64,000 nt of DNA from an uncultured Actinomycetota bacterium (lineage in GTDB: Bacteria; Actinomycetota; UBA4738; HRBIN12): assembly GCA_963750945.1 (NCBI GenBank), contig CAVVSH010000015.1, positions 357,296 through 421,295 of the forward strand, given 5' to 3'. Positions 2,346 to 25,599 of the stretch are shown here, piece by piece. The first letter of the stretch is position 1. The number at the start of each line of letters is the position of its first letter. The notes under the pieces are model-generated. The model ran no database searches and was not told where the DNA came from. It saw only the letters and a program-made list of their open reading frames with translations. The translations under genes were made by a program, and so were the position numbers.

Positions 2346-4370
2346 CTATCGAGCCGCCTGGAGGAGCTGCTCGGCGAGGTCTTCCCTCTGTGTCACCGGA
2401 AGGCGGCATGCGAATCGCTCGCAGACGTAGGCGGTCGGAGATCCGTTCACCTGGGGGCGGTCGCGCAGAAGCGCGACCGCCTCGATCGCCTCTTCGTCAT
2501 CGGGCGCCGCGATGGCGACCACAGTGTTCGGGAGGAACCGAACCGTGAGCACCTCATCCGCCAGGGCCCGAGCGGCGGGATCGTCCATCGATCCGATGAT
2601 CGCCACCTCACGGGTCGGACCCAGCGAGAGATCCAGCGCAGAGAGCGCGTGTCCGAAGCCCGACGGTGCTCTTCCGAGCACGTCTCGGATCAGCCGGATC
2701 CCCGACACACCGATCCGCTCGAGCTCCTGGTCTCCCATCAGGAGCGCGATCCGCTGGATCACGTCGGCGGCCGCCGAGTTCCCCGACGGCACGGCGTTGT
2801 CGTAGAGCTCCTTCGGCCGGATCACGAGTGCGTCGACGTCGGCGCCCGACTGGAAGAACCCCCCACGCTCGTCGTCCGCGAACAACCGGACGAGGTCGTC
2901 GACCAACCGCTTCGCCTCGCGGAACCACCGCAGCTCACCGGTGCGTGAGAACAGCGCGAGCATGGCGGAGGCGAGCAGCGCGTGGTCGTCGGCATACCCC
3001 GGGCCGCCCGGTGTGCCGTCTCGCCAGGAGCGAAGGAGCCTGCCGTCGGGACTTCGCAGGTTCGAAAGGACGAACTCCGCGGCGGTGATCGCGGCGCCGG
3101 TGAAGGCGTCGTTCCCGAACGCCCGGCCCGCCTCCGCGAACGCCTGGATCGCCATCGCGTTCCACGCGGTCAGCACCTTGTCGTCGGTCGCGGGCCGCAC
3201 GCGACGCTCGCGCGCCGCGAACAGGACACGTCGAGCCTCCTCGAGTTCCTCGCTGTGGCTGTCGGCGTCCGGTCGCCGCAGGACGTTCGTCCCTTCTCCA
3301 TGCTCCCCGGCCCAGTTGCCGCCCGGAGAAGCCCCGAAGGCCTTCGCGGCCCCCTCGCCCACCAGGCCGATGAGCTCGTCCCACGACCAGGTGAAGAACT
3401 TGCCCTCGACGCCTTCGGAGTCGGCGTCCTGGCTCGAGAAGAAGCCGCCGTCCGGATGCCGCATCTCGCGAAGCAGGTACTCGAGGGTCTCGGTCGCGAT
3501 CCGCCGATAGCGATCCTCGCGAGTGAGCTGCCAGGCGCGCGTGTACAGCTGGGCCAGCTGGGCGTTGTCGTAGAGCATCTTCTCGAAGTGGGGAACGAGC
3601 CAGGTCGCGTCCGTCGAGTACCTGGCGAAACCGCCTCCCAGCTGGTCGTACATGCCACCCGCCGCCATCCGATCGAGGGTCGTCGTCAGCATCGGGAGGG
3701 CGTCGGGGGCGTCTCTCAGAGCCATCCGCAGAACGAATTCGAGCGTCATCGGTTGAGGGAACTTCGGTGCCGAGCCGAACCCGCCCCAGGTCTCGTCGAA
3801 CGATCGCCGGAGCATCGCCAGCGCCGACGACGTGATCTCGTCGGTGAGCGGTTCGTCGGACGCCGTCAGCGACACGGCACGGGAGATCGCGTCGATGACC
3901 CGGCCGCCCTGTCCTTCGAGCTCGGTGCGCCGCTCGCTCCAAGCCTCGGCGATCCCCCCCAGCACCTGGCGGAACGACGGCAGGCCGTGGGCGGGCTCCT
4001 TCGGGAAGTAGGTCCCGGCGAAGAAGGGCTTGCCCGCGGGGGTGAGGAACGCGGACAGCGGCCATCCGCCCTGGCCCGTCAGCGCCTGGACGGCATCCAT
4101 GTAGATCGCGTCCAGGTCCGGTCGCTCCTCACGGTCGACCTTGATCGGAACGAAGTTCGCGTTCAGGAAGGCGGCCGTTCCCTCGTCTTCGAAGGATTCG
4201 CGCTCCATCACGTGGCACCAGTGACATGCGGCGTACCCGATCGAGAGGAAGATCGGACGGTCCTCGGCAGCCGCCTTCGACAACGCCTCCTCTCCCCATG
4301 GGAACCAGTCCACGGGGTTGTCGGCGTGCTGTAGGAGGTACGGGCTCGTGGCATCGGCCAGACGATTCAC
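2346..4370 (-). CDS. Thioredoxin-domain protein YyaL/SPATA20 family (DUF255 plus alpha/alpha barrel)
   Basis: [63 protein letters not shown]. Start set at GTG 4370. Confidence 0.93.
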
Positions 4371-4441
4371 CCTGACAGTGTCGCGCAAGGGACCGGTCGC
4401 CAGCTCAGTTCTGGGCGGAGAGGTGCCGATGTTCTCGTGAG

Positions 4442-5104
4442 ATGGACGAGTTGCGGGTCCTCATCGTGGACGACAGCCTCGGACTGGCGCAGGGCCTGGT
4501 GCTGGCGCTCCGCCGGCGGCCGGGGCTCGAGGTGCTGGGTCCGGTGGCCGACGAGGCGAGCGCGCTCCGCATGCTCGCCGAGACGCCGGTCGACATCGTC
4601 GTGGTGGGCATCGATCGAGCCGACGAGCAGGGCGTCGCCCTGATCTCCGCTCTCCGCAATGCCTCCGACATCCGCGTCATGGCCGCGACGCGACACGTCG
4701 CCTCACCCTTGGTCGAGCTCGCGCTCGCCGCGGGCGCCTGTGGTGTGCTTCCGATCGAACGGGAGCCCGCACACTTGGTGGCGGCGTTCCGGCGCGCCAT
4801 CGCCGGAGAGCTCGTCCTCCCCGTCGCGGAGCTTCCGACCCTCGTCGATCGCCTGTGGCAGGCACGGGCACGGCACAGCGAGCACACGCTCCTTGGCACG
4901 TTGACCGGACGCGAGCGCGAGATCCTCGCGGCCCTTGCCGACGGCGCCACGACCTCCGAGCTCGCAGTCGAGCTCGGCATCAGTCCGGCCACGGTGCAGA
5001 CCCACGTGAAGAACGTCCTGAGCAAGCTCGGCGTGCACTCCAAGGTCGAGGCGGTCGGGACCGCGTGGCGGGCGGGCCTCACACTCACCTCGCGTTCCGC
5101 CTGA
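4442..5104 (+). CDS. NarL/LuxR-family response regulator, atypical receiver
   Basis: RVLIVDD receiver start. The phospho-Asp position reads DIVVVGI and the conserved Lys position reads [23 protein letters not shown]...[18 protein letters not shown]. Confidence 0.9.
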
Positions 5105-5121
5105 GCGGTAGCCTCGCCGGC

Positions 5122-5775
5122 ATGGACGTGGTCCATGCGGTGGTGGCGGCAGGACATCCGGTCGTGAGGAGCGTCATCGACATCGCCTGCCGGGAGGCAG
5201 GCGTCACGGTCCTCGCGAAGGTGGAGACGGCGTCGGCCGCGATCGATGCCTGTCGTTCCCGAAGACCCGAGCTGCTCGTCCTGGACCTGGAGCTCCCCGA
5301 CGCCGACGGATTCCGAGTGCTCGCCGATCTCGACGACCTCGACCGGCCGGAGGCCGTTCTGGTGTTGTCGGATCACGCGGAAGGAGACCTGGTGCTCCGC
5401 GCCCTCCGACTCGGCGCCCGCGGCTACGTCACGAAGGCGGAGGGACTGAGGGATCTCTCGAGCACGATCACCAGGGTGCTCGCAGGAGAGCGTGTCATCG
5501 CCCCGGGGATGGAGCAGGACGCGGTCCTCGCGCTGGGGCGGTTCGCACGACGCGCCCGGGAGGGTGCGGAGGTGGCGGCCGATCTGACCCCCCGGGAACA
5601 ACAGGTACTCGAGCTCTTGAGCGACGGGCACACGATGCGGCAGATCGCCACGAGGCTCAGCATCTCCCCCCGAACGGTGGAGACCCATGTCGCGAAGGTG
5701 TATCGGAAGCTCGGCGTGCGCACGCGGGTGCAGGCCGTCTCGCGAGCGGCCACGCTCGGGCTCGTGGAGCTGTAG
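5122..5775 (+). CDS. NarL/LuxR-family response regulator (acidic pocket degenerate)
   Basis: MDVVHAVVAAGH (no DD), LLVLDLELPD, GARGYVTK, HTH LTPREQQVLELLSDG...SPRTVETHVAKVYRKLGV. TAGCCT -10 lies 7 nt before ATG 5122. Confidence 0.9.
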   Translation: MDVVHAVVAAGHPVVRSVIDIACREAGVTVLAKVETASAAIDACRSRRPELLVLDLELPDADGFRVLADLDDLDRPEAVLVLSDHAEGDLVLRALRLGARGYVTKAEGLRDLSSTITRVLAGERVIAPGMEQDAVLALGRFARRAREGAEVAADLTPREQQVLELLSDGHTMRQIATRLSISPRTVETHVAKVYRKLGVRTRVQAVSRAATLGLVEL

Positions 5776-5799
5776 CCTCAGCCGCGTCACCGCCGATAG
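5771..5799 (+). promoter_or_regulatory. Candidate sigma28/FliA/WhiG-type promoter of the third regulator
   Basis: GCCGATAG at 5792-5799 (consensus -10 GCCGATAA), with a weak -35 TGTAG 16 nt upstream. Confidence 0.35.
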
Positions 5800-5835
5800 G
5801 GAAGATGGCGGCAGACCTGTCGCTCCGGAGAGCCG

Positions 5836-6543
5836 ATGAGCGCATCGTCCGTGAACGAGACCAAGGCAACCCGCGCCATCCGGCGCCTGGGCGTCGTCGT
5901 CGTCGACCCGTTCCCGGTGGTCCGCGCGGGACTCGCGACCACGATCGAGGCGAGTCCCGGCCTCGAGGTCCTCGCCCAGGCCTCGAGTGCGGAGGAGGCG
6001 ATCGCCGTGGTCGGCGGCGTTCGCCGCACCCGAGTTGTCGTGCTCGTCGCGATGGGTCTCGCGGGGGACAAGGATTCCTACTGGCTGATCCGGACGCTCC
6101 GCGAGCGCTTCCCCGGCCACGCGATCCTCGGCCTGGGAGCCAACGCCGATCCTCACGTGGTCTCGCGGGCGCTGTTCGTCGGCGCCGACGGATTCGTCGA
6201 CAAGAACATCGAGCTCGACGAGTTCCTGGCGGCGATCAAGAGCGCAGGGAACGAGGAGATGGTGATCGCCGGTCCGGCCGCCGCCTCCGTCGGGAAGATC
6301 GCCGAGGGGATCGAACGTCGGAGGAGCGTCGGCCTCAGGCTCACGAGGCGCGAGCGGGAGGTCCTGGCGGTCGCGGCCGAGGGTTTGACCGCTCGCGAGA
6401 TCGCGGAGCGGCTCGGCGTTCGCGAGCGGACGGTCACGACGCATCTGGCCAGGATCTACGGCAAGCTCGGCGTCGGGAACCGGCTGGCCGCACTCCGGAT
6501 GGCGGCGCGCTCCGGTCTCGTCTCGATCGGCCCCGCCGAATAG
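5836..6543 (+). CDS. NarL/LuxR-family response regulator, atypical receiver
   Basis: VVVVDPFPVVRAGL. The phospho-Asp position reads VVLVAMG. GADGFVDK; HTH LTRREREVLAVAAEG...RERTVTTHLARIYGKLGV. Confidence 0.9.
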   Translation: MSASSVNETKATRAIRRLGVVVVDPFPVVRAGLATTIEASPGLEVLAQASSAEEAIAVVGGVRRTRVVVLVAMGLAGDKDSYWLIRTLRERFPGHAILGLGANADPHVVSRALFVGADGFVDKNIELDEFLAAIKSAGNEEMVIAGPAAASVGKIAEGIERRRSVGLRLTRREREVLAVAAEGLTAREIAERLGVRERTVTTHLARIYGKLGVGNRLAALRMAARSGLVSIGPAE

Positions 6544-6544
6544 C

Positions 6545-7996
6545 TCAGCGTCGCACGAACACGGACCCGGCGGGGCCCTCCGTGTCGAGGCGCCACGCGG
6601 GGTCCCCCCGCAGCTCTCCAGCGAGGACGGCGCCCGGCGGAAGGATCACGCCCGAGATCTCGTGGCGATCGAGGATCGCCTGCCACCCGTCCCCGGCGAC
6701 GATCGCGGTGTCGTAGTCCCGCCAGATCCCGGCCGGGAACAGCTCGATGCGGGAGTCCACCATCACGGGGTAGCCGGCGAGCGAGAACTCGAACCACGAA
6801 GCGAACGGCTGGAACACGAGGAGGCGCGACCCGGTGGGCAGCGCCCGCCGGGTCGCGCCCGTCAGCACCTCCGGTGCGTCGGCGGCGAGCCGCTTCGGCG
6901 CGCCGGTCACGGGGTCGGTGCCCGATCGCGAGAGGAAGGCCGCGACGAGCAGCGCGAGCGAAAGGACCGCCGTCGCCACCCTCGTGCCCGGCGTGGAGAG
7001 CGCGGGGGACTCCGCCCGTGGCTCCCGGACCGCCAGCCAGCCGGCCACGACGGGGGGCGCCGCGAGCGCCCACCACACGGTGGATCGGAGTGCCGCCGCG
7101 CCGAGCGCGAAGAACACCAGCAGCCGAGCGACGTCCATCGCCTTGACCGTCGTGCGCCTCGTGAGCGCCACCACGACGACCGCGATCCCGGAGAGCCAGA
7201 AGAGCGACCCGGCGCCCGAGAATGGTGAGGGAGGCCGCCACTCGGCGACGGTGTTCCTGATCGTGTCGTTGGTCGAGACGTCCACGACGTAGGACCACAC
7301 GGTGAGCCCGAACGGGTTGGCAGCGGTCGCCGCGATCGTCGCGACGACGACCAGCGCCGGCCGGAGAGGCGATCGCCGGCTGACCAGGTCGTCCCCGAGC
7401 GCGAAGGCCGCCAGGATCGGCGCGAGTACGAAGCTTCCGTGGATGTTGGCCCACACGACCGTGACGACCGGCACCAGCCAGGTCCAGCCGTCTCGTCGCG
7501 AGAGCAGCAACCAGGTCAGGGTGAACAGGGGTACCGCCAGCGCCTGGGGCCTCGCGCCCAACGAGCTCGCGCCGACCAGAAATCCGAGGATCGTCAGGAT
7601 CGCCGCGGTACGTACGTCGCTCCCGGCACGCCGGCAGTTCCGATACAGAAGGGAGAAACCGGCTCCGATCGCGGCGGCATAGGTCAGTGCGACGCCCGCC
7701 CAACCCCAGATCCGATGCGCCGAAGCGAACACGACCTGGGCGCCCCACTGCTGGTTCAACCAGGGCAACCCCGGCCGCGTGAACGTGAAGGGATCGGTGC
7801 GCACGAGCTCCCCCGTACCGAGGGCGAGCTCCCCCGCTCGCACCTGGTAGGCGAGGTCGATCGCTCTCATCCTGGAGATGAGTGCGGCCGCAGCCGGCAG
7901 AACGCCGGCCGCGGCCGCCCACGCAGCCTCCGTCCGATGGCCCCCCGGAGAACTGTTGCGGCCTATCCGAAAATCGGCCCCTTTAGGGGTTCCCAT
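6545..7996 (-). CDS. Polytopic membrane protein, probable GT-C-type glycosyltransferase (start uncertain)
   Basis: Many hydrophobic segments. First-loop motif IDLAYQVRAG...DPFTFT...WLNQQW, then RPQ, WANIHGSF, NPFG, EWRPP and a C-terminal soluble DSRIELFP domain. Confidence 0.6.
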   Translation of the reverse strand: MGTPKGADFRIGRNSSPGGHRTEAAWAAAAGVLPAAAALISRMRAIDLAYQVRAGELALGTGELVRTDPFTFTRPGLPWLNQQWGAQVVFASAHRIWGWAGVALTYAAAIGAGFSLLYRNCRRAGSDVRTAAILTILGFLVGASSLGARPQALAVPLFTLTWLLLSRRDGWTWLVPVVTVVWANIHGSFVLAPILAAFALGDDLVSRRSPLRPALVVVATIAATAANPFGLTVWSYVVDVSTNDTIRNTVAEWRPPSPFSGAGSLFWLSGIAVVVVALTRRTTVKAMDVARLLVFFALGAAALRSTVWWALAAPPVVAGWLAVREPRAESPALSTPGTRVATAVLSLALLVAAFLSRSGTDPVTGAPKRLAADAPEVLTGATRRALPTGSRLLVFQPFASWFEFSLAGYPVMVDSRIELFPAGIWRDYDTAIVAGDGWQAILDRHEISGVILPPGAVLAGELRGDPAWRLDTEGPAGSVFVRR

Positions 7997-8019
7997 CGGG
8001 GCATCCTACGGGGTACCAT
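7978..8019. promoter_or_regulatory. 12-bp-phased GGGG-NN-CC repeat array, candidate operator between divergent genes
   Basis: GGGG at 7986, 7998 and 8010 (TAGGGGTTCCCA/TCGGGGCATCCT/ACGGGGTACCAT), preceded by the near-palindrome CCCCTTTAGGGG. Confidence 0.45.
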
Positions 8020-8111
8020 CCGGCTCCCTCAGGAACAAGGGGGGTGCGTACGTCGAAGTACGTAGACAACTCCAGTGGAATTCGGGATTCCCTGGGGCCG
8101 TGGGGTTCTTC

Positions 8112-8163
8112 TAACGTGATCACTGGCGGGATAGCATCTCGCCGGTGGGGCGCGAAGCGCCCC
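8112..8163 (+). promoter_or_regulatory. flp promoter -10 (TAACGT) followed by two 5'-UTR hairpins
   Basis: TAACGT 8112-8117; stem GGCGGGA-TAGCA-TCTCGCC 8125-8143; stem GGGGCGC-GAA-GCGCCCC 8147-8163; SD GGAGGAAGGGGG before ATG 8198. Confidence 0.5.
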
Positions 8164-8197
8164 TGAGGACGGGATATCGGAGGAAGGGGGTGTACAG

Positions 8198-8398
8198 ATG
8201 CTTCAGCTCTTCACCGGTTTCCAGACTTGGTGGGCAGAGCTCAAGGAGCGTGCCTCGGAGGAGCGCGGCGCGACCGCGGTGGAGTACGCGCTGATGGTTG
8301 CTTTGATCGCAGTTGTGATCATCGTCGCGGTGACGTTCCTGGGCGAGTCTGCGAGCGACAAGTTCCAGCAGGTCGGGGACGCAGTCGCTAGCACCTAA
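8198..8398 (+). CDS. flp: Flp/Fap type IVc pilin
   Basis: 66 aa; EERG/ATAVEYALMVALIAVVIIVAVTFLG Flp motif with G cleavage site and +5 E-Y. Confidence 0.96.
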   Translation: MLQLFTGFQTWWAELKERASEERGATAVEYALMVALIAVVIIVAVTFLGESASDKFQQVGDAVAST

Positions 8399-8421
8399 GT
8401 CCAACTACAGCTCTACAGCTA

Positions 8422-8471
8422 GAGCGGCCCCGTCGGCCGCTCGCGACGCCGCCCTCGAGGCGGCGGCGCGA
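8422..8471 (+). terminator. Double hairpin after flp (attenuating terminator or mRNA stabiliser)
   Basis: GAGCGGCC-ccgtc-GGCCGCTC 8422-8442 and CGCCGCC-ctcga-GGCGGCG 8447-8465; no U-tract. Confidence 0.55.
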
Positions 8472-8500
8472 GGGGCCGACGGCCCTGCGACGCAGGAGCG

Positions 8501-8929
8501 ATGGGACAAATGAAGATCCGAGCCAAGCTTCGTCGTGAAGAGGGAGCGGCCGCAGTCGAGTTCGCGTTGATCGTGGGACTTCTGGCCATCCTGGTCTTCG
8601 GCCTGCTCGAATACGGGCTGGCCTTCTGGCAGGTGCAGAACCTCCGGGCGGCAGCCCGAGAGGGTGCGCGGGTCGCCGCCGTCCGCGGCGACAGCAACGA
8701 GATCAGCGCGGCCATGGTCGCATCGTCGGCCGGCTCTCTCAGTCCGGGCTTCGCTGGATTCAGCGCATCGACCGTCTGCGACGGCGATCCCCCCGGAGCC
8801 CAGGTCACCGTCACGATCAACAACGGCGCCCTCTCCGGAGCCGTCAGGGAGGCGTTCGACGTGTCGATCCCCTTCTTGCCGCCGATCCAATTGGATCCCA
8901 CGCTGAGCGGGACGTTCCGATGCGAGTGA
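8501..8929 (+). CDS. tadE: TadE-like minor pilin
   Basis: REEG/AAAVEFALIVGLLAILVFGLLEYG...AAAREGARVAAV. Confidence 0.92.
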   Translation: MGQMKIRAKLRREEGAAAVEFALIVGLLAILVFGLLEYGLAFWQVQNLRAAAREGARVAAVRGDSNEISAAMVASSAGSLSPGFAGFSASTVCDGDPPGAQVTVTINNGALSGAVREAFDVSIPFLPPIQLDPTLSGTFRCE

Positions 8930-10302
8930 CGAAGCGGATCTCACGCGAGGGTGGCAACGACGAGCGCGGCGCGACCGCCGTCATCGTGACGCTCAGCCTC
9001 ATCGCACTTCTCGGCATGATCATCTTGACCGTCGACGTGGGCCAGCTGCTCTACAAGCGCCGCGCGATGGTGAACGCATCAGACGCCGCCGCGCTCGCCG
9101 CCGCTCAGTCCTGCGCGGGGCTGGCGGATTCCGACGATCCCAATTCGATGGCGAACACCTTCGCGGTAGAGAACGTGAGCGTCGCCACGGGCGGGATCAC
9201 CGAGATGGTGGGATGCGACGGCCCGCCGTTCGGGCACGTCACCGTCGAGTACGGCATGGAGCAGGGACTCTTCTTCGCGGGGGTGCTCGGTTTCGACGGC
9301 CCGGCGGCCGTGAGAACCGAGGCCACCGCCGGTTGGGGGCCGACCGGTTCCGCCAACCCACTCCCGATCGTGGTCTACACGGGTCAGGAACAAGGCAACT
9401 GCGACATCCAGGAGGGGACCCCACCCGGGACCCCCTGCTACATGTGGTACGACAACGACCTCTTCAACAACTCCTCCTTCGGCTTCTTGAACCTCTGCAC
9501 CGCGACGGATCCGTGCCAGCAGGGGTGGGGCGTCGGCCAGACCGACAGCTGCCCGAACGTCGGGGCGAGTCTCCGCGACGATTGGATCGAGGGGAACTGG
9601 ACCGGCGGCCCGAACGAGGTCGAGCCCCCGTTCTCATACGTCTGTCGGGTGAGCGGTGTCTCGGAGACGAACTGGTCGACGCTCGAGGGTCGTGAGATCC
9701 CGGGTGATCCCACCGGGCACGTCTTCGGCGAGGAGGACAACGCCGACCTGATCTTCCCCGTAAACGACTGCACGCACCAGGTGCTGACGGACGGGACGGT
9801 CGGCTGCAGCACGACGCTGTCACCGGAGAAGTACGCGATCGTGGGGTTCATCGTGCTGCACCTCGAGGACGTGCTCGACAGCGCGGCCGAGTGGGGCGGC
9901 AGCTCGATCAGGTCCTGCGACGTTCGCCGCGACATGGCACATAATCAGGTCGTTCCGCTCTCGAGCCTCGGTCCCTCTGGCCAGTGCCCCACCTCGACGC
10001 CGTCCGGGGTCGAGGACTTCATGCTCAATGGACAGACGTCGAGCCCGAACTGGACGTACGACGACCTGAACAAGTCCTTCACGTGGACCGGTCCTGCCAC
10101 TCCGAGGGTGGACATCGACTTCGACTGGTGGCTCGACGGCGAATGCGGTCAGCCTCCCAACAACTCGAGCGCCGTCTGCCTGAAGGTCACGACGGTCGAG
10201 GTTCGGTTCGGTGGACAGGGCATCTGTCCGGAATGCGCGGACTACGGTCTTCGGGGTGTCCGATTGTGCGACACGGTGATCGGGAGTTGCCCGGAAGAAT
10301 GA
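8920..10302 (+). CDS. tadG: TadG-like minor or tip pilin with Cys-rich extracellular region
   Basis: DERG/ATAVIVTLSLIALLGMIILTVDVG...NASDAAALAAA Tad N-terminus; 18 Cys counted. Confidence 0.85.
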   Translation: MRVTKRISREGGNDERGATAVIVTLSLIALLGMIILTVDVGQLLYKRRAMVNASDAAALAAAQSCAGLADSDDPNSMANTFAVENVSVATGGITEMVGCDGPPFGHVTVEYGMEQGLFFAGVLGFDGPAAVRTEATAGWGPTGSANPLPIVVYTGQEQGNCDIQEGTPPGTPCYMWYDNDLFNNSSFGFLNLCTATDPCQQGWGVGQTDSCPNVGASLRDDWIEGNWTGGPNEVEPPFSYVCRVSGVSETNWSTLEGREIPGDPTGHVFGEEDNADLIFPVNDCTHQVLTDGTVGCSTTLSPEKYAIVGFIVLHLEDVLDSAAEWGGSSIRSCDVRRDMAHNQVVPLSSLGPSGQCPTSTPSGVEDFMLNGQTSSPNWTYDDLNKSFTWTGPATPRVDIDFDWWLDGECGQPPNNSSAVCLKVTTVEVRFGGQGICPECADYGLRGVRLCDTVIGSCPEE

Positions 10303-10316
10303 ACTGAGCCAATGAC

Positions 10317-10344
10317 TGAAGCCGGCGGGGGGCACGGCCGATAG
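10317..10344 (+). promoter_or_regulatory. sigma28/FliA/WhiG-type promoter upstream of cpaB
   Basis: TGAA-N16-GCCGATAG, against consensus TAAA-N15/16-GCCGATAA, in the tadG-cpaB gap. Confidence 0.55.
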
Positions 10345-10379
10345 AAGAACTCTGAGGATGGGCTGAAAGGAGCAAGAGG

Positions 10380-11174
10380 ATGAGGTCACGGGGTCTGGTG
10401 GTTGCGATCGCTGTCGTGCTCGCTGTTGCGGCGGCGGCGGCTGTGATCCTTTACACGCAAGGGGTCAAGACAGAGGCGGAGCAGGGTGGCAGCCTTCAGA
10501 CGGTCATCGTTTCGTCGCAGGAGATCCGGGCCAACGAGCCGCTAAGTCCGCTCGTCGCCCAGGACATCTTCAAACAGGTCCAAGTCCCGCAGGAAGCACT
10601 GGTTTCGGACGCCGTGACGGACATCCGGCAGCTCGAGGATGCGACCACGACCTCGACGATCTACGCGAACGAGCAGATCCCGATCTCTCGCCTCTCGACC
10701 GGCCCTCGGCCGAACGAGCTGGGCATCACCGAGGGTCACATCGGTCTCGCGGTCGAGCTCGATGCTCCACAGGGCGGTACCGGCAACGTGCAGCCCGGGG
10801 ACAACATCTCGGTCTTCGCCACGTACCAGAACGTCCAGGCGCTCGCCGGGCTCACACGGGAGTCGGTCAACAACCCCAACGCGGCCAACACGGGCCGCAA
10901 GGTTGATCTCCCCGACTTCACCGTGACCCTGATCCCGACCGTCAAGGTCCTCCGGATCCAGAACCCCGAGGTCGACACCGAGACCGGTCAGCAGAACGAC
11001 AGCGACCGGATCCGGATCACGCTCGATCTCCTTCCGCAGGACGCGCAGAACCTCGTGTTCGCACAGGAGAACGGACTGGTGTGGCTGGGCCTGCTGCCGC
11101 CCGACGAAGAGGGCACGCAGCCGAACGCCTCCACCGTTCCGCTGGACCTGCTGATCGGAGCGAGATTGGGATGA
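10380..11174 (+). CDS. cpaB: Flp pilus assembly protein CpaB/RcpC (SAF domain)
   Basis: N-terminal TM, VIVSSQEIRAN SAF-like region, GNVQPGDNISV, TLIPTVKVLRI, ITLDLLPQDAQNLVFAQENGLVWLGL. Confidence 0.9.
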   Translation: MRSRGLVVAIAVVLAVAAAAAVILYTQGVKTEAEQGGSLQTVIVSSQEIRANEPLSPLVAQDIFKQVQVPQEALVSDAVTDIRQLEDATTTSTIYANEQIPISRLSTGPRPNELGITEGHIGLAVELDAPQGGTGNVQPGDNISVFATYQNVQALAGLTRESVNNPNAANTGRKVDLPDFTVTLIPTVKVLRIQNPEVDTETGQQNDSDRIRITLDLLPQDAQNLVFAQENGLVWLGLLPPDEEGTQPNASTVPLDLLIGARLG

Positions 11175-12391
11175 CTGACGCGAGCGTCGTCGCCGTCGGG
11201 ACGCCGCAGTCGTTCCGTCAACAGCTCGCCAGGGCCATCGAGATGGGCCCGGACGAGGTGGGTTGGGTGCAGTCTGCCACGGCTGCCGAGGAGTTGTTGA
11301 TCAACGCCTTCCAGCCCATCGACGTCCTGGTCCTCTCGCCCGAGGTCAAGGAGCCCGACGCACTCGGCCTGGCCGAGTTCGTCGGGCGCCAGGCCCCCGG
11401 CACGGCCATGGTGCTGGTCCGCGATCACACGTGGAACGGGCTGTTGCCGGCGGCCATGCGCGCAGGTATCCGCGACGTCGTCGACATGACCCAGGGGACG
11501 GAGGAGCTCCGCGACGCCGTGGAGCGCGCCATCGTCTGGGCATCCAACCTGCGTTCGGTGAACGTCACCCAGACCGACGGTCAGCCTCTTACGAGAGGGC
11601 GGATCCTTTCGGTCTTCTCCTCCAAAGGTGGGACCGGGAAGACGTTCCTGACTTCGAACCTCGCGACCTCGATCTCCGAGGTCACCGGCCAGGACACGGC
11701 GGTCGTCGACCTCGACATCGACATGGGCGACGTGTTCACGTATTTCGGCCGGGAGCCATCGGCCACCATCCAGGACCTGATGGAACTGGGTGAAGGGGCG
11801 GAGCGCTCCCGCATCAAGGCCGTGGGTGTCCAGCTCGCGGAGCACCTGTGGGGGTTCGGCGCGCCGCCGGATCCCGCCGCGGAAGCTCCCGCCGGTGAGG
11901 CCATCGGGAAGTTCCTCCGGGCGCTGCGGAACGAGTTCACCTGGGTCGTCGTGGACGCCTCGGTCGACTACTCGGACTCCGCGCTCGTGTGCTTCGATCT
12001 CTCCGACGCGATCTGCCTCGTCACAGGCCTCGACGTCGTCGGTGTGAAGCACCTGTCCAAGTCACTCGACACGCTGCTCACGATCGGTCTACCGCGCGAG
12101 CGGTTCCGCGTGGTGCTCAACCGCGCGGACTCCAAGGTCGGCCTCGACGCCTCCGACGTGGAGCGCGTCATGAAGATCAACGTCGACGCGATGATCCCCT
12201 CGAGCCGGCTCGTGCCGACGTCGCTGAACAAGGGTCGTCCGGTCGTGCTGGACGAGCCCAACTCCGAGGTCGCGCAGGCGGTTCGGCAACTCGCTATGCG
12301 GTTCGCCGGCCAGGCCGAGATGGTCGCCGCCGGTGAGGCCGGGATCGACACGTCCAACAAGAAGAAGCGGAAGCTGTTCGCCCGAAGCTGA
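11171..12391 (+). CDS. cpaE: CpaE/TadZ (pseudo-receiver plus ParA/MinD ATPase)
   Basis: Deviant Walker A SSKGGTGKT, VVDLDIDMGD, VVLNRADS. Starts at ATG 11171, overlapping the cpaB stop. Confidence 0.92.
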   Translation: MTDASVVAVGTPQSFRQQLARAIEMGPDEVGWVQSATAAEELLINAFQPIDVLVLSPEVKEPDALGLAEFVGRQAPGTAMVLVRDHTWNGLLPAAMRAGIRDVVDMTQGTEELRDAVERAIVWASNLRSVNVTQTDGQPLTRGRILSVFSSKGGTGKTFLTSNLATSISEVTGQDTAVVDLDIDMGDVFTYFGREPSATIQDLMELGEGAERSRIKAVGVQLAEHLWGFGAPPDPAAEAPAGEAIGKFLRALRNEFTWVVVDASVDYSDSALVCFDLSDAICLVTGLDVVGVKHLSKSLDTLLTIGLPRERFRVVLNRADSKVGLDASDVERVMKINVDAMIPSSRLVPTSLNKGRPVVLDEPNSEVAQAVRQLAMRFAGQAEMVAAGEAGIDTSNKKKRKLFARS

Positions 12392-12420
12392 GAATGAGAA
12401 GAAGGTAGAGGAGGCACCCC

Positions 12421-13737
12421 ATGTCCCTGGCAGACAGGCTGCAGAAGGCCCAACAGAAGGACCGGATCGCCGAGGTCCGGACCCGGGTGCAAGAGCGCCT
12501 GGTCGAGAGCCTCGGGCCCCGCCTGTACGACGCGACCCTCTCCGACACCGAGCTCGAGGGCATGGTGCACCAGCGCCTGCGCGAGCTCCTCGACGAGGAA
12601 GAGGGCCCGCTCGCCGCGCAGGAGAAGCTTCTCATCGTTCGCCAGATCGGCGACAGCGTCCTCGGTCTGGGGCCGCTCGAGCCTTACATCCGCGACCCGG
12701 AGGTCACCGAAGTCATGGTGAACAACTGGGACACGATCTACGTGGAGCGTTCGGGCAAGCTGTACTGGACCGGGACGAAGTTCCACGACGAAGGCCAGCT
12801 CCGTCGCACGATCGACAAGATCGTCGCGAAGGTCGGCCGGCGAGTCGACGAGGCGAGTCCGATGGTGGACGCGCGCCTCCCCGATGGATCGCGTGTCAAC
12901 GCGATCATCCCGCCGCTCGCGATCGACGGTCCCACGCTCACGATCCGTAAGTTCGCCGCCGACCCGTACCAGGCGGACGACCTGGTGGAGTTCGGCACGA
13001 TGAGCTCCGCGACGTCGAAGTTCCTCGAAGCCTGCGTGCGCGGCCGCATCAACATCATGGTCGCGGGCGGAACGGGTGCCGGGAAGACGACGACGCTGAA
13101 CGTCATCTCGTCTTTCATCCCCGACGACGAGCGGATCGTCACGATCGAGGACGCCGCGGAGCTGAAGCTCCAGCAGCCTCACGTCGTCCGTCTCGAGTCC
13201 CGGCCACCGAACATCGAAGGGAAGGGCCAGGTCTCGATCCGCGACCTCGTGAGGAACTCGCTGCGTATGCGGCCCGACCGGATCGTGGTCGGAGAGGTCC
13301 GTGGGCCCGAGGCCCTGGACATGCTCCAGGCCATGAACACGGGTCACGACGGCTCGATCTCCACGATCCACTGCAACTCGCCTCGCGACGCGCTCTCGCG
13401 TCTCGAGACGATCACGATGATGGCGGGGATGGACCTCGGCTCTCGTGCGATCCGTGAGCAGATCTCATCCGCGATCCAGCTGATCGTGTACCAACAGCGC
13501 CTGAAGGACGGGACGCGTCGCTTCACGCACGTGACGGAGGTCGCCGGGATGGAGGGTGAAGTCATCACCCTCCAGGACATCTTCCTGTTCGACTTCTCGG
13601 CCGGCATGGACGACGAGGGCCGGTTCCGGGGACGCCTCAAGTCCACGGGGCTTCGGCCGAAGTTCCTCGACAAGCTCCAGGAGCGAGGCATCAGCATCGA
13701 CGCGGACCTCTTCGCGATGGAACAGAAGGGTCGGTAG
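12421..13737 (+). CDS. cpaF: CpaF/TadA pilus assembly ATPase
   Basis: [62 protein letters not shown]. Confidence 0.97.
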
Positions 13738-14745
13738 ATGCTGGCGGCAGAGAACTTCTTCTCGAGCCAGGCGATGCTGGCCGTCGTCGTCGCCCTCGTG
13801 GCGCTGGCGGCCTTCGCGCTGGGGTGGCTCTTGCTCGGGACCGCCGCGCGGGTGAAGGCGGATCGCGACATGGCCGCTCGGATGGCGGCGATCGGACGCC
13901 CGGTCCCGCAGTCCACTGCGTCGCCGGTCGGCAAGGCCGGCAGCGGGTGGATCCCCGAGAGTGTGTCGGCGTTCGGCGAGCGCTTCGCCCAGTCCCAGGG
14001 CTTCAGCGAGAAGCTGGATGCTCGGCTCGAGGCCGCGGGTGTGAGCCTACGGTCGGGCGAGTTCGTGGTCGCCACGGTGGGCGCCGGGCTCCTCGGCGGC
14101 GTGCTGGGTGCGGCCGTCTTCGTGAAGCCGATCCTCGCCGGTGTGTTCGGTCTCTTGGGTCTGGCGCTTCCCACGCTCGTCCTGCGGATGTCGCTCAATC
14201 GCAGGGGCGACAAGCTTCGGGAGCAGTTGCCGGACGTGCTCACGATCATGGCGTCCTCGCTGCGCGCAGGGCACTCGTTCCTCCAGGCGCTCGACACCAC
14301 GGCGCGTGAGATCTCTGCGCCCGCCAACGTGGAGTTCCAGCGGCTCGTCTCGGAGATCCGGCTCGGCCGTCCGGCCGAGGAGGCCCTCGAGGCGCTCGCC
14401 GACCGGGTCGGGAGCCCCGACTTCCGATGGGCGGTCCTCGCGGTGAACATCCAGCGTGAGGTCGGCGGGAACCTCGCCGAGATCCTCGACAACGTGTCCG
14501 ACACGCTCCGTGAGCGCGCGACGATGCGCCGTCAGATCCAGGTCCTTACCGCTGAGGGTCGGTTGTCCGCGTGGGTCCTCGCGCTCTTGCCGTTCGCGAT
14601 CGGGATCTACATGTTCGCGGTGAACCCGGAGTACATCTCCTTGCTCGTCACGACGCAGATCGGTCTGTTCATGCTGGGTGTGGCTGGGGTCCTGATGGTG
14701 CTTGGGATCCTCTGGATGAGGAAGATCGTGGATATCGATGTCTGA
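13738..14745 (+). CDS. tadB: TadB (T2SS-F family) platform protein
   Basis: EQLPDVLTIMASSLRAGHSF, IQREVGGNLAEILD, LTAEGRLSAWVL. Confidence 0.95.
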   Translation: MLAAENFFSSQAMLAVVVALVALAAFALGWLLLGTAARVKADRDMAARMAAIGRPVPQSTASPVGKAGSGWIPESVSAFGERFAQSQGFSEKLDARLEAAGVSLRSGEFVVATVGAGLLGGVLGAAVFVKPILAGVFGLLGLALPTLVLRMSLNRRGDKLREQLPDVLTIMASSLRAGHSFLQALDTTAREISAPANVEFQRLVSEIRLGRPAEEALEALADRVGSPDFRWAVLAVNIQREVGGNLAEILDNVSDTLRERATMRRQIQVLTAEGRLSAWVLALLPFAIGIYMFAVNPEYISLLVTTQIGLFMLGVAGVLMVLGILWMRKIVDIDV

Positions 14746-15682
14746 CATCTGGTTGGTCCTTGCCATCGGATGCGTCTTCGGCGCCATCCTCCTGCTCGGG
14801 ATCTTCATCGACCTGAGTCAGTCGGAGCGTCGTCGCGCGGTCCGACTGCTCGAGTCCCAGGTCGCCGGCACGACGAGCGAGAACGTGAACCTGCGGGAGC
14901 AGCACCTCTCGGAGAGCTTCGGACGACGGATCGTCGTGCCCGTCGTCGCCGGAGCGGCGAAGGTCGCTCGACGGGTCACGCCGATCGATGCTCGCGACCG
15001 CGTCGCCCACAAGCTCCTGCTCGCTGGGAGCCCGAGTGGATGGGACGCCGAGCGCTTGCTCGCGTTCAAGATCATCGGGCTGGGCGGCGGCATCGTGCTC
15101 GGCTTCTTCGTGACGACCCTCGTCGGTGACATCGCTCCGTTCATCCGGATCGTGATGATCGGTCTCCTGGCGTTCGTGGGCTTCATGGTTCCCGACTCGA
15201 TGCTGAACCGCCGTGTCGAAGAGCGTCAGAAGGAGATCCTCAGGACGCTCTCGGACACCCTCGACCTCCTGACGATCAGCGTGGAAGCGGGCCTGTCGCT
15301 GAACGCCGCGATCGCGCAGGTCGTGCAGAACGTGCCGGGTGTCCTGTCCTCCGAGTTCGCTCGCATGCTGCAGGAGATCCAGCTGGGCGTGCCGCGCGCC
15401 GACGCCTTCCGGAACCTCGCCGAGCGAACCGACGTGGACGAGCTCAATGCCTTCGCCCTCGCGATGATCCAGGCCGACGTCTTCGGTGTCTCGATCGCCA
15501 GCGTGCTCCGAACCCAGGCGCAGCAGCTGCGGATCAAGCGCCGGCAGCGCGCCGAGGGGAAGGCGCAGCAGACCCCCGTCAAGATCGTGTTCCCGCTGAT
15601 CCTGTGCATCCTGCCGGCCCTGTTCGTGGTCATCGTCGGGCCCGGCGCGATCCGGATCTTCGAGTCCTTCGTCACGACGTGA
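14738..15682 (+). CDS. tadC: TadC (T2SS-F family) platform protein
   Basis: LDLLTISVEAGLSL, ADVFGVSIASVLR, KAQQTPVKIVFPLILCILPALFVVIVGP. Confidence 0.95.
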   Translation: MSDIWLVLAIGCVFGAILLLGIFIDLSQSERRRAVRLLESQVAGTTSENVNLREQHLSESFGRRIVVPVVAGAAKVARRVTPIDARDRVAHKLLLAGSPSGWDAERLLAFKIIGLGGGIVLGFFVTTLVGDIAPFIRIVMIGLLAFVGFMVPDSMLNRRVEERQKEILRTLSDTLDLLTISVEAGLSLNAAIAQVVQNVPGVLSSEFARMLQEIQLGVPRADAFRNLAERTDVDELNAFALAMIQADVFGVSIASVLRTQAQQLRIKRRQRAEGKAQQTPVKIVFPLILCILPALFVVIVGPGAIRIFESFVTT

Positions 15683-21888: not shown

Positions 21889-22575
21889 CTATCCTCGCAG
21901 CTTCCCCTTGCGGTCAGCCTTGGAGGGCGGACCACCACCCTTCCCCGGCCCGCCGCTCTCTTTCGTCGGGGCGAAGCGGCGAAGGCTTCCCGTGTCATTC
22001 ACCAGGAGGATCCGCGGCACGCCCTCACCCAGATGCACGACCGAGACCGATGCGGGTTCTGCCGTGACGCGCTGGAACTGATCGAGATGGGCCCCCGTGT
22101 AGTGGGAGATCAGGACGCGGACGAGGTCGCCGTGCGTGCCCACGGCGATCCGACCGCGTGGGTGTCGGGCCACGATCCGCTCGACCTCGTCCAACACCCG
22201 GGCCTCCGCGTCGACGAAGCTCTCGCCGCCCGGGAAGGAGAATCGGGAGGGGTTGCGCTGCACCATCTCCCAGAGCTTCAGGCGCCGGAGGGAACGGAGC
22301 GTCCGTCCCGTCCATGTGCCGGCGTCCATCTCGATCAGCGCCTCCGAGGTCCTGATCGCCAGCCTGTGAGCCTCCGCCAGCGGCTCCATCGTCTCGACGC
22401 AGCGCTCGAGAGGGCTCGAGTACAGGGCGGTGAGGCGAACGCCCTCGAAGCGCTCGACGAGCGCGGCCGCCTGACGGCGGCCGCGCTCGTCGAGATGGAT
22501 CCCCGGCGTCCGGCCGTACAGCCGCGACCCCGTCACGGCGGTGACGCCGTGACGGATCAGGAACAGGGTCGTCAT
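21889..22575 (-). CDS. Histidine phosphatase, MSMEG_4193 family
   Basis: LIRHGVT, LYGRTPGIHL, YSSPLERCVET, GTHGDLVR, DQFQRV. Confidence 0.9.
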   Translation of the reverse strand: MTTLFLIRHGVTAVTGSRLYGRTPGIHLDERGRRQAAALVERFEGVRLTALYSSPLERCVETMEPLAEAHRLAIRTSEALIEMDAGTWTGRTLRSLRRLKLWEMVQRNPSRFSFPGGESFVDAEARVLDEVERIVARHPRGRIAVGTHGDLVRVLISHYTGAHLDQFQRVTAEPASVSVVHLGEGVPRILLVNDTGSLRRFAPTKESGGPGKGGGPPSKADRKGKLRG

Positions 22576-22668
22576 CGCGCTGGAGCATACGAGGGTCGTT
22601 CGCCGGCTCCGAGCGCGCGACCGACCTCTCGATCTTCGGATCCTCGCTCCGTATGGGAGCATCGATCC

Positions 22669-24213
22669 GTGGAAGTGAGTCGGCGGGCTCGACACGACGA
22701 CCGGCCGTTCGCGGTGGTGGACGTCGGGTCGAACTCGGCGCGGATGATCGTCTTCCGTCTGCGCCCGGGTGAGCACCTGGACGTGCTCGAGGATGCGCGT
22801 GCACCGCTCCGCCTCGGACGAGAGCTGCGCGACGACGACCGCCTCGGGTCGGAGGCGATCGACCGGACCCTCGAGACGCTCCGGGATTTCAAGGCGATCG
22901 CCGACGGCGCGGGAGCGGGCAGGATGATCGCCGTCGCGACCTCCGCCGTTCGCGAGTCTCGCGACGGGGGACGGCTCGTCAAGGAAGCGCACGCGTTGGG
23001 GGTGCCGCTGGAGATCATCGACGGCGATCTCGAGGCGAGGTTCGGTTTCCTGGGCGCCGTGCACGACCTGCCGGTCGTGCACGGCGCCGCGATGGACGTG
23101 GGCGGCGGAAGCATGGAGCTCACGAGCTTCCACGATCGGCGGTTCGATCGATCCTGGACGTTCCCGTTCGGGTCCCTCCGCGTGAGCGATCGGTTCCTCG
23201 CTTCGGACCCGCCGTCGGATCGCGAGATGAAGGACCTGCGCAAGGCGGTGGCCGCGGCGTTCGAGGGCTCGGGTGTGCCCGAGCTGGGTGAGCATGGCGA
23301 TCTGGTGGGGATCGGGGGCACCGTGCGGAACCTCGCCAAGATGGATCTCCGCCGGACCGATCACCCGTTACCGCTCCTCCACGGATACGAGCTCCGGGAG
23401 GAGAACCTCGAGTGGATCATCGATGATCTCGCGGCGCGCACGATGAAGCGCCGCGCGCGGCTCCGCGGGCTCAACCCCGACCGTGCCGACTCGATCGTGG
23501 GGGGCGCGCTCGTCGTGCTCGCCGCGATGCGACACCTCGGCGCGGGGCGACTGGTGGTCTCGAGCCGAGGGCTTCGCGAGGGCCTCGCGCTGGGAGACCT
23601 CTCGTCCGTCCCCTCACCTCGAGAGGTGCGGACGATCTCCGCGGCGACGCTCGCCGCGCGGTTCGCGACGTGGAACGTGACCGTCGCGGAGCGCCGGTCC
23701 TCGCTCGCTGTCCAGCTGATCGACGCGCTCGATCCCGACGCGACGCCGTTCGTCGTGGAGATGCTCGAGCACGCGGCCGCGTTGCTGGACGTGGGGAAGG
23801 CGATCGATCACTACGAGCGGTTCGAGCACACCGCGATGATCGTGACCACGGCGGACCTCGCCGGATTCACCCACGAGGCTCTCGGCATCCTGTCCGCGAT
23901 CCTCCGACACGCGGGAGGGGCGGCGAGCCTCGGCCCGTACGCGCGGCTGATCCCGGCCGGCGAGCGCCCCGCGGTTCGTCGGACGGCCGTCGCGCTCGCC
24001 CTCGCCGAAGAGCTCCACCGGCGCATCCCCCCCGGTGAACCGGCCTCGATCACGTGCAGGTGGCGAGGGCGGTTCGAGGTCGAGGCCCCGGTCCCGGCAC
24101 CGTGGCACCCCAGGGGGGTGGCCGACCGGTTCCGAACGGTCTTCGGTGCGAGGCTCTCGATCGTGCCCGCGCCGGACGCTCGGCAGCTCAACCCGGTGAT
24201 GGCACCCGACTAG
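22669..24213 (+). CDS. ppx: Ppx/GppA exopolyphosphatase with degenerate HD domain
   Basis: VDVGSNSARM, DGDLEARFGFLG, DVGGGSMEL, GIGGTVRNL, GLREG. The HD motif reads LLDVG. Confidence 0.9.
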   Translation: MEVSRRARHDDRPFAVVDVGSNSARMIVFRLRPGEHLDVLEDARAPLRLGRELRDDDRLGSEAIDRTLETLRDFKAIADGAGAGRMIAVATSAVRESRDGGRLVKEAHALGVPLEIIDGDLEARFGFLGAVHDLPVVHGAAMDVGGGSMELTSFHDRRFDRSWTFPFGSLRVSDRFLASDPPSDREMKDLRKAVAAAFEGSGVPELGEHGDLVGIGGTVRNLAKMDLRRTDHPLPLLHGYELREENLEWIIDDLAARTMKRRARLRGLNPDRADSIVGGALVVLAAMRHLGAGRLVVSSRGLREGLALGDLSSVPSPREVRTISAATLAARFATWNVTVAERRSSLAVQLIDALDPDATPFVVEMLEHAAALLDVGKAIDHYERFEHTAMIVTTADLAGFTHEALGILSAILRHAGGAASLGPYARLIPAGERPAVRRTAVALALAEELHRRIPPGEPASITCRWRGRFEVEAPVPAPWHPRGVADRFRTVFGARLSIVPAPDARQLNPVMAPD

Positions 24214-24226
24214 TGCGAGAGAGAGC

Positions 24227-25381: not shown

Positions 25382-25410
25382 GCGCGGGAGTCTAGGCGCG
25401 CGGTGCCCTC

Positions 25411-25454: not shown

Positions 25455-25495
25455 CCGAGAGGTGGGCTCCGGCGTCCTGACCAGCGAAGACTCGG

Positions 25496-25517: not shown

Positions 25518-25599
25518 TGCCACGGGACCGCCATCCACCCCACCTAGCATCGCGCCGGTGTCCGGAAACCGGTACCCGGAGAAACAGGGGAGGGCAAGC

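Follow-up and report, generated by a model that had tools for sequence, protein, structure and literature searches.

The 64-kb window analysed here (the whole stretch of 64,000 nucleotides (nt), from contig CAVVSH010000015.1 of an uncultured Actinomycetota bacterium) has a G+C content of 68–70%, of actinobacterial type, and carries three tandem, same-strand open reading frames (ORFs) of response-regulator type upstream of a tight-adherence (Tad) pilus locus. Positions 4442–6543 run exactly from the start of the first, RR1, to the stop of the third, RR3; the intergenic gaps are 17 nt (RR1–RR2) and 60 nt (RR2–RR3), with the true start of RR2 at the ATG at 5122. All three encode a receiver (REC) domain followed by a LuxR/GerE DNA-binding domain, and they are referred to below as the trio:

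4442–5104, + strand: RR1, 220 amino acids (aa), REC plus LuxR/GerE (Pfam, NarL alignment, AlphaFold2 (AF2) model, Foldseek)
5122–5775, + strand: RR2, 217 aa, REC plus LuxR/GerE (Pfam, DesR and NarL alignments)
5836–6543, + strand: RR3, 235 aa, REC lacking the acceptor Asp ("Asp-less") plus LuxR/GerE (Pfam, DevR and NarL alignments)

Pfam recognizes a Response_reg domain in each protein (42.5, 60.9, and 38.8 bits for RR1, RR2, and RR3; cut-off 30.2) and a GerE domain at 64–69 bits (E 6e-18 to 3e-19), and with the conserved recognition helices described below this upholds the LuxR helix–turn–helix (HTH) that the first-pass annotation of this DNA had assigned to all three. No NCBIfam equivalog was found for the trio; the best match, the MadR family, reaches 84–108 bits against a cut-off of 300. 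Catalytic positions were set by residue-by-residue HMMER alignment to NarL (1A04), DevR (3C3W), and DesR (4LDZ). By these alignments RR1 has the site set D-D-G-T-I, with D10–D11 present, G56 at the position of NarL D59, the conserved Thr kept as T83, and I105 at the position of K109. RR2 has A-G-D-S-K, with A10–G11 instead of the acidic pair (VVAAGHP) and D55, S83, and K105 retained. RR3 has D-P-A-G-K, with D24–P25, A72 at the phospho-site (V71 in the DevR register), G101 for Thr, and K123 retained, so that three of its five catalytic residues are gone. None of the three possesses the complete phospho-acceptor set of two acids, Asp, Thr/Ser, and Lys. The AF2 model of RR1 (predicted local distance difference test, pLDDT, 82.6) adopts the (beta-alpha)5 fold, with beta3 ending C-terminally in G56, beta4 ending in T83, and I105 just past beta5; the Gly thus truly occupies the acceptor position, and the invariant D58 of RR1 lies in the loop. 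The best Foldseek matches of this model are VraR, LiaR, RcsB, and NarL. The residue-level claims of the first-pass annotation thus hold for RR1 (acidic pair kept, Gly at the phospho-site, no Lys; the conserved Thr is also kept) and for RR2 (Asp, Ser, and Lys kept, acidic pair lost). For RR3 it had named Ala at the phospho-site, correctly, but understated the degeneracy: the second acid is replaced by Pro and the Thr by Gly as well.

These departures are not peculiar to one genome. When the GTDB species were scanned, each through one genome, 43 genomes proved to have a full-length RR1 relative (42–97% identity), all of them uncultured soil or sediment metagenome-assembled genomes (MAGs) and many from the MFD soil MAG series; more than 120 RR1 orthologs, at 62–98% identity and all of about 220 aa, come from metagenomes or from MAGs labelled 'Actinomycetota bacterium'. 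Identity between the paralogs RR1, RR2, and RR3 is only 31–36%, and orthologs range over 42–97% for RR1, 44–97% for RR2, and 59–99% for RR3, the best conserved of the three; the reading frames of all three are intact in 42–44 genomes. Because the paralogs have diverged to this extent and yet each has its own ortholog set, the triplication is ancient and every copy is under purifying selection. More than a single-genome curiosity, the trio is a module that an uncultured clade of actinobacteria has conserved.

The full D-D-D-T/S-K set occurs in none of the 128 orthologs of the trio. In RR1 orthologs the Lys is never present (0/44), and the acceptor Asp is found in 27 of 44 and otherwise replaced by G, Q, E, N, or A. 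RR2 orthologs keep the Asp (41/42), the Thr/Ser (36/42), and the Lys (42/42); none has both acids (0/42) and most have neither. In RR3 orthologs the acceptor position is always A, G, or S (42/42), the second acid is nearly always Pro (41/42), and the set in which Gly stands for Thr and the Lys remains is constant. The recurrence of each paralog's own substitution set over 42–44 orthologs argues that the losses are not due to chance, and as judged from these alignments the stable loss of catalytic residues, with the receiver fold kept, is a lineage trait of the trio. Conservation is higher in the HTH domains than in the REC domains, and the recognition helices are near-invariant within each paralog and different between paralogs (RR1, SPATVQ[S/T]HVKN; RR2, SPRTVETHVAK; RR3, RERTVTTHLARIYGKL). 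RR3 additionally belongs to a wider Asp-less family, which at 50% identity comprises about 45 clusters and was recovered in a search of 1.8 billion cluster representatives in which canonical regulators turn up only at much weaker scores. Its named members all bear generic 'response regulator' annotations and come from uncultured Actinomycetota only. By sequence comparison and gene context, the RR3 family is a distinct NarL-type Asp-less lineage, usually linked to tad genes.

The immediate surroundings of the trio in the window are as follows:

2346–4388, − strand: DsbH/DUF255 thioredoxin-like gene, divergent from RR1 in every clade genome, 53 nt away
8198–8398, + strand: flp pilin gene (Pfam Flp_Fap, E 3.5e-14), expressed in situ
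8501–15682, + strand: tad assembly genes tadE, tadG-like, cpaB/rcpC, tadZ/cpaE, tadA/cpaF, tadB, and tadC (Pfam TadE, Tad, RcpC, CbiA/ParA, T2SSE, and T2SSF twice; NCBIfam TadA)

In all 37 loci with enough contig, the trio lies upstream of flp-tad, in the order DsbH-like (−); RR1, RR2, RR3 (+); an optional membrane protein gene (−); and flp, tadE, tadG, cpaB, tadZ, tadA, tadB, tadC. Gene contexts were also taken for six distant members of the RR3 family (L087, L089, L090, L091, L092, and L093). L087, whose RR3-like protein is 57% identical to RR3, has a trio followed by flp-tad, in which the RR1-like (DDDTK) and RR2-like (EDDTK) proteins are canonical and only the RR3-like protein is Asp-less. 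In L089 a canonical RR2-like gene (DDDSK) and an RR3-like gene are followed by a GT-C-like gene and flp-tad; in L092 an RR3-like gene stands directly ahead of a tad locus; and L091 packs five REC–GerE genes into 6.4 kb as canonical plus Asp-less pairs, beside a prepilin peptidase and a GT87 glycosyltransferase gene. The association between trio and tad genes, to which the first-pass annotation had pointed from a single locus, is therefore conserved and recurs in distant lineages with other neighbours. From these contexts, the ancestral unit was likely one or more canonical regulators that stood at a tad locus together with an Asp-less partner; the clade of the window would have secondarily lost the other two phospho-sites. 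In other lineages canonical genes repeatedly sit in close pairs with Asp-less ones, an indirect hint of pairing between their products.

Two features upstream of the regulator genes bear on how the trio may be transcribed:

4404–4432, + strand: candidate sigma-28/FliA/WhiG-type promoter, with CTCA at 4404–4407, a 17-nt spacer, and GCCGATGT at 4425–4432
5792–5799, + strand: GCCGATAG, probable remnant of an RR3-specific sigma-28-type −10, predicted for the window

The candidate promoter (CTCA-N17-GCCGAT) ends 10 nt before the RR1 ATG. When the DsbH–RR1 spacer is aligned over 44 loci, TGCCGATG is invariant and [C/T]TCA stands 17 nt upstream of it, with variable sequence between; the pattern [C/T]TCA-N16-17-GCCGA ends 9–20 nt ahead of the RR1 start in 42 of the 44, its chance rate being about one per 14 kb with both strands counted. 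The motif fits the published actinobacterial consensus (WhiG1, CTCA-N16-17-GCCGAACT; WhiG2, T(A/C)AA-N16-GCCGATAA; PMC12871210; PMC8325347), its activity as a promoter being predicted from sequence. About 20 more distant genomes have CTCA/TTCA-N16-17-GCCGATAG ending 6–8 nt before the RR3 start, and L087 has both elements (CTCA-N17-GCCGAAAC before the RR1-like gene and TTCA-N16-GCCGATAG before the RR3-like gene). In the clade of the window only GCCGATAG is found before RR3; the nearest CTCA (5777–5780) lies just 11 nt upstream, at the wrong spacing. Regulator RNA is rare in public runs: contigs of a relative cover 4450–4676 and 5154–5384, both at depth 2.4, and one such low-depth contig begins 8 nt inside RR1 with nothing upstream. 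Transcription of the trio probably starts from the sigma-28/FliA/WhiG-type promoter predicted directly upstream of RR1. No sigma factor gene was found among the predicted genes of the window in a Pfam sweep. L001, L012, and L016 also show a sigma-28-like match between flp and tadE, but it falls within a hairpin and was discounted as spurious. In other actinobacteria, WhiG, RsiG, and cyclic di-GMP (c-di-GMP) control type IV pili in Rubrobacter (PMC12871210; PMC8325347). In a preprint, nearly every Streptomyces genome searched had whiI among the targets of WhiG, and in other families WhiG is predicted to act on BldM homologs (PMC12871210).

At the other end of the trio, an alignment of 39 loci shows conservation beginning abruptly about 150 nt upstream of flp, with, in order, TACGT-N6-ACGTA, GGAAT-N5-ATTCC, CTAnCGT, two covarying hairpins, and a strong Shine–Dalgarno sequence. 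In the window these elements lie as follows:

8035–8197, + strand: structured 5′ leader of flp, at least 160 nt, containing both inverted repeats, hairpins at about 8124–8143 and about 8147–8163, and the Shine–Dalgarno region GGAGGAAGGGGG
8049–8064, no strand assigned: TACGTCGAAGTACGTA, the TACGT-N6-ACGTA palindrome, candidate operator, RNA hairpin also possible
8072–8095, no strand assigned: CCAGTGGAATTCGGGATTCCCTGG, second inverted repeat, conserved, core GGAAT-N5-ATTCC at 8077–8091

Of 38 loci, 27 carry the palindrome without a mismatch and 33 with at most one, and its distance upstream of flp is always 123–165 nt. The window has a single copy, and elsewhere in the loci the motif is almost absent. 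The outgroups L087 and L089 have it too, the latter as a perfect 8-2-8 DNA palindrome, and its 16-bp TAC-N10-GTA layout matches the 7-2-7 geometry of NarL sites. Of the conserved blocks it is the best candidate operator for a NarL-type dimer. In the second repeat, GG.ATTCCC is nearly invariant over the 39 loci and occurs once in the window; it forms a hairpin in the consensus fold of the group-A loci. Two arrangements elsewhere in the clade concern the same box. L020, L044, and L048 have two tandem flp copies about 650 nt apart, each with its own TACGT-N6-ACGTA box at about −147. In L045, two boxes lie just upstream of RR3 (about 11359–11412), and one of them has GCCGAT, which forms the core of a sigma-28-type −10, as its spacer, an arrangement that suggests autoregulation in that genome.

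RNA from flp is present in ice and soil metatranscriptomes at depths of 20–217. Its contigs start at 8035, 8048 (adapter-bounded, depth 217), 8066, 8070, 8089 (three runs), and 8125, the single start at 8125 coinciding with strain-variable positions, and depth is zero over the membrane-protein (GT-C) gene end of the stretch in 7 of 11 RNA-labelled runs. Because contigs start at 8035–8089, the conserved blocks lie inside a transcribed leader of at least 160 nt. A class-II-activated flp promoter, with the palindrome at about −40 and TAACGT (8112–8117) as −10, was considered and dropped, since the RNA contigs of several runs start upstream of it. A tentative alternative is TTCCCA (7990–7995)-N17-TACCAT (8013–8018), adjoined by the inverted repeat GGCCCCTTTAGGGG (7977–7990), a candidate promoter that fits group A and is untraceable in the other groups; a sigma-70 pattern scan yielded no promoter and merely two weak terminator-like sites. 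Downstream, the depth of flp RNA falls after flp at hairpins in 8399–8500. The first-pass annotation had proposed as target a divergent promoter region shared by flp and the gene that converges on RR3. That gene, encoding the optional membrane protein, is present in 26 of 37 loci and absent from 11, where RR3 directly precedes flp on the same strand; since it is dispensable, the conserved elements belong to flp rather than to a shared divergent promoter, and with their position inside the transcribed flp leader this part of the proposal does not stand.

On balance, we favour the view that the trio is an operon of three anciently diverged NarL/LuxR regulators whose receivers do not act as phospho-switches and that act on flp-tad; as the comparisons stand, the trio probably controls flp-tad without a sensor kinase. 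RR3 belongs to a family that never had the acceptor Asp; RR1 is without the switch Lys and, in this clade, also without the Asp; and RR2 has lost the acidic pair that binds Mg2+. Activity would then be set by the amount of each protein and by the partners present, not by a kinase. Transcription would proceed from the sigma-28/FliA/WhiG-type promoter upstream of RR1, with a second such promoter upstream of RR3 in many relatives, and the proteins would act on flp-tad at TACGT-N6-ACGTA, and possibly also at GGAAT-N5-ATTCC, about 150 nt upstream of flp. Since these sites lie inside the transcribed leader, binding there could mean repression or a roadblock, or else activation of a downstream start. 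The domain composition, the residue losses with their conservation, the gene order, the conserved DNA motifs, and the expression of flp with a long leader are observed directly; the use of a sigma-28-type factor, the binding of the palindrome, the non-phosphorylation of RR2, and the pairing of the three proteins are all inferred from sequence.

Several observations weigh against this account. Both the palindrome and the second repeat form part of the flp transcript and are able to fold as hairpins, and some changes in their flanks look compensatory; they may be RNA elements instead of operators. The Asp, Thr/Ser, and Lys of RR2 are strongly constrained, which could mean residual phosphotransfer. 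Because the RR1-like and RR2-like proteins of L087 are fully canonical, kinase independence would be derived in this clade and not a property of the module at large. Two of the six outgroup contexts, L090 and L093, are without pilus genes in the DNA available. Finally, within the clade of 43 genomes the DsbH–RR1 adjacency is as constant as that of RR3 and flp, and tadC–pheA is also syntenic, for which reason the adjacency of trio and tad may partly represent inherited gene order.

One alternative is that the blocks upstream of flp are RNA elements with a role in stability, translation, or ligand sensing, and that the trio acts elsewhere, for example on the promoter region at about 7977–8018 or on other genes. 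We regard this as possible, though as something less than likely. Beyond the transcription of the blocks and the capacity of each to fold as a hairpin, the flanks of the TACGT box pair differently yet consistently by lineage (GTGCGTAC/GTACGCAC and GGATGCGT/ACGCATCC), and the RNAalifold consensus for group A reaches −41.5 kcal/mol. The leader has four or five hairpins, and the fold includes a possible anti-Shine–Dalgarno pairing of UCUUCU (about 8108–8113) with GGGGG (about 8187–8191). RNAalifold over all lineages, however, gave no common structure in the flp leader, and no Rfam family matched in 4300–8500. It is primary sequence (TACGT, GGAATTCCC) that is conserved rather than pairing, with the register of the helices shifting between groups; the same palindrome stands upstream of RR3 in L045, outside any flp leader; and the perfect 8-2-8 form in L089 has a 2-nt centre too short for an RNA loop. 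These points count against the RNA reading.

A second alternative retains phosphorylation: RR2 would be an ordinary phospho-accepting orphan served by a distant kinase, as would RR1 where its Asp is kept, and RR1 and RR3 would merely modulate it. Orphan regulators with distant kinases are common, the outgroup orthologs of RR2 are canonical (L087 and L089), and the retention of Asp, Thr/Ser, and Lys across RR2 orthologs and of the acceptor Asp in 27 of 44 RR1 orthologs would all fit. In CheY-type receivers, however, the acidic pair holds the Mg2+ needed for phosphotransfer, and no RR2 ortholog of the trio has both acids; the phospho-site of RR1 drifts freely, and its Lys is missing throughout. 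Nor does the neighbourhood supply a partner. The Pfam sweep of predicted genes found no HisKA_3 (NarX/NarQ/DesK-type) kinase in the window, a single match to a HisKA_3 H-box regular expression being dismissed as lying in a non-coding frame, and no kinase was found within 10 kb of the related loci or in any conserved flank. The sole histidine kinase in the 64 kb is PhoR-like (HisKA plus HATPase_c, 24227–25381, − strand) and lies among the phosphate genes pstSCAB-phoU-ppk-ppx, a cluster that has an OmpR-type regulator of its own (30158–30859). The absence of a nearby NarQ-type kinase asserted in the first-pass annotation is thereby confirmed, and its proposal of phosphorylation independence gains from the ortholog counts (acceptor Asp 0/42 in RR3, Lys 0/44 in RR1, both acids 0/42 in RR2), which make canonical phospho-control implausible. 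We consider an orphan RR2 under kinase control unlikely.

It is also conceivable that the tad adjacency is no more than inherited gene order, and that the trio controls, for example, the divergent DsbH-like gene or a dispersed regulon. The constancy of DsbH–RR1 and tadC–pheA within the clade and the two outgroup RR3-family genes without pilus neighbours would fit such a scenario. In L087, however, a cyclase/AAA gene parts the DsbH-like gene from the trio while flp still follows straight after RR3; L089, L092, and L091 again tie RR3-family genes to tad or prepilin-peptidase genes in differing contexts; and loss of the intervening membrane protein gene leaves the trio immediately upstream of flp on the same strand. 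A mere accident of gene order is accordingly improbable in our estimation. That the three genes are functionless, decaying remnants of two-component systems, as the loss of catalytic residues in all three could suggest, is contradicted by the intact frames in 42–44 genomes, the 59–99% identity of RR3, the near-invariant recognition helices, and the low-level RR1 and RR2 transcripts of a relative in one metatranscriptome, and we give this explanation almost no credence.

The gene that lies between RR3 and flp in the window deserves separate mention:

6545–7870, − strand: polytopic membrane protein with a GT-C fold, convergent with RR3, longest ORF to 7996

A start near 7870 is favoured by codon statistics and by about half of the annotated homologs, all of which are annotated 'hypothetical', and the protein has no sequence match in Pfam, NCBIfam, or the PDB. 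An AF2 model built on 30 homologs (pLDDT 76.8) returned GT-C structures for all of its top 19 Foldseek matches in the PDB (best E 7e-7, template-modelling (TM) score 0.5–0.62), among them STT3/AglB, DPY19, ArnT, AftD, Pmt4, and AftB. The GT-C label in the first-pass annotation is thus right at the level of fold. On this structural likeness the protein may be a pilin or envelope glycosyltransferase, glycosylation of the pilin itself being speculation. The GT87 gene that accompanies the similar regulator array in L091 is likewise of the GT-C class.

Other observations concern the pilus genes and the wider neighbourhood. In TadZ/CpaE (11171–12391), about 140 N-terminal residues, to which Pfam assigns no domain, precede the ParA/MinD ATPase domain; this is where other TadZ proteins have their atypical receiver domain. 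Although Flp needs a prepilin peptidase, the window proteins that were scanned include no Peptidase_A24/TadV; L091 has an A24 peptidase inside its regulator array. The C-terminal region of the DsbH-like protein has a weak, sub-threshold Pfam match to N-acylglucosamine 2-epimerase. Directly upstream of the trio, L087 encodes at 5116–8400 a large adenylate/guanylate cyclase plus AAA_16 (STAND-like) protein, and the same domain pair is found in the window at 54098–56191 (− strand), 48 kb from the trio. Farther along the window, the phosphate/polyphosphate cluster (21889–33940) comprises genes for a histidine phosphatase, Ppx/GppA, the PhoR-like kinase, PstSCAB, PhoU, a PhoP-like regulator, polyphosphate kinase, and a CHAD protein. 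A cyanophycinase-like peptidase S51 and a cyanophycin synthetase (43845–47542) and the trehalose-phosphate phosphatase and synthase OtsB/OtsA (47900–50106) represent storage and stress functions typical of soil actinobacteria.

Taken further, these results allow a broader and more doubtful proposal, which we offer tentatively: that the locus exemplifies an unrecognized Tad-pilus module of uncultured soil Actinomycetota. In it, a NarL-type array would be switched on by a sigma factor of the sigma-28/WhiG type, which c-di-GMP and RsiG possibly control as they do in Rubrobacter; the members of the array would act as obligate pairs or trios around an ancient Asp-less partner, the RR3 family, the once canonical partners having since lost their phospho-sites in this clade. 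If so, it would be a cascade run by protein abundance and partner choice, with no kinases—a natural two-component pathway rewired into a sigma-factor cascade. To our knowledge, the regulation of Tad/Flp pili is poorly understood in Gram-positive bacteria, and we know of nothing on it for the abundant uncultured soil Actinomycetota. The locus offers a defined candidate circuit (a promoter motif, three regulators, a unique palindrome, and a pilin expressed in situ) together with a large uncharacterized family of Asp-less NarL-type regulators. As the related genomes span canonical to degenerate receivers, they can show how two-component regulators escape kinase control, and the possible reach of WhiG/FliA sigma factors, which in Rubrobacter extends to type IV pili, would be widened to Tad pili via intermediate regulators.

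Among the closest functional parallels are BldM and WhiI of Streptomyces, orphan atypical NarL regulators that form a heterodimer, WhiI lacking the Lys and one of the two Asp and being expressed from a WhiG promoter (PMC4125116). The trio shares with them the NarL-type REC plus HTH architecture, the lack of an adjacent kinase, and the sigma-28/WhiG-type motif ahead of RR1 and RR3, and the residue losses of WhiI are those of RR1 in most relatives; it differs in comprising three adjacent paralogs in one predicted operon beside pilus rather than sporulation genes, and the BldM box TCACcCgnncGgGTGA is absent here. By BLASTP, identity to BldM is 33% for RR2, 32% for RR1, and 30% for RR3, the same range as for E. 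coli NarL, and orthology of the trio with BldM was rejected on these grounds. The query for this comparison matches exactly the S. coelicolor entry Q7AKI8_STRCO, which is BldM. The analogy with BldM, WhiI, and sigma-WhiG drawn in the first-pass annotation is strengthened at one point that was not expected, the sigma-28/WhiG-type motif before RR1 and, in many genomes, before RR3; in sequence BldM is no closer than NarL.

A NarL-type regulator encoded at a tad locus has a precedent in PprB, a NarL/LuxR regulator at the flp-tad-rcp locus of P. aeruginosa that directly and positively controls flp/tad (PMC3510237). PprB is, however, a classical proteobacterial regulator with its kinase PprA in the locus, whereas here an actinobacterium has three degenerate regulators and no kinase. 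VpsT of Vibrio cholerae and CsgD of E. coli are receiver-like plus LuxR biofilm regulators that work without phosphorylation. They resemble the trio in combining a degenerate REC domain with a LuxR HTH, theirs controlling adhesion and biofilm genes, and differ from it in being single genes. The RR1 model has VpsT among its structural matches, and CsgD appears among weak NCBIfam matches; the c-di-GMP motif of VpsT, W[F/L/M][T/S]R, occurs in none of the 128 orthologs, RR3 having WLIR at residues 83–86 in a different helix.

RcsB, a NarL-family regulator whose specificity is altered by heterodimerizing with the LuxR-type partners RcsA, BglJ, and GadE (summarized in PMC4125116), is among the best sequence or structure matches of RR3 and RR1. 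By analogy, the recurring canonical plus Asp-less gene pairs would suit a partner-swapping scheme of this kind, although RcsB is phosphorylated through RcsCD and its partners have no receiver domains. Asp-less or pseudo-receiver regulators such as FrzS and HP1043 (cited in PMC4125116) have a receiver fold without a functional acceptor, of which RR3 is a clear case; the RR3 family differs from them as a NarL-type lineage from uncultured Actinomycetota that is usually tad-linked. Searches of the literature turned up no account of regulator arrays of this kind at tad loci of actinobacteria. None of these likenesses amounts to a family assignment: the analogies are functional, and they place the trio among the atypical orphan NarL regulators of surface structures.

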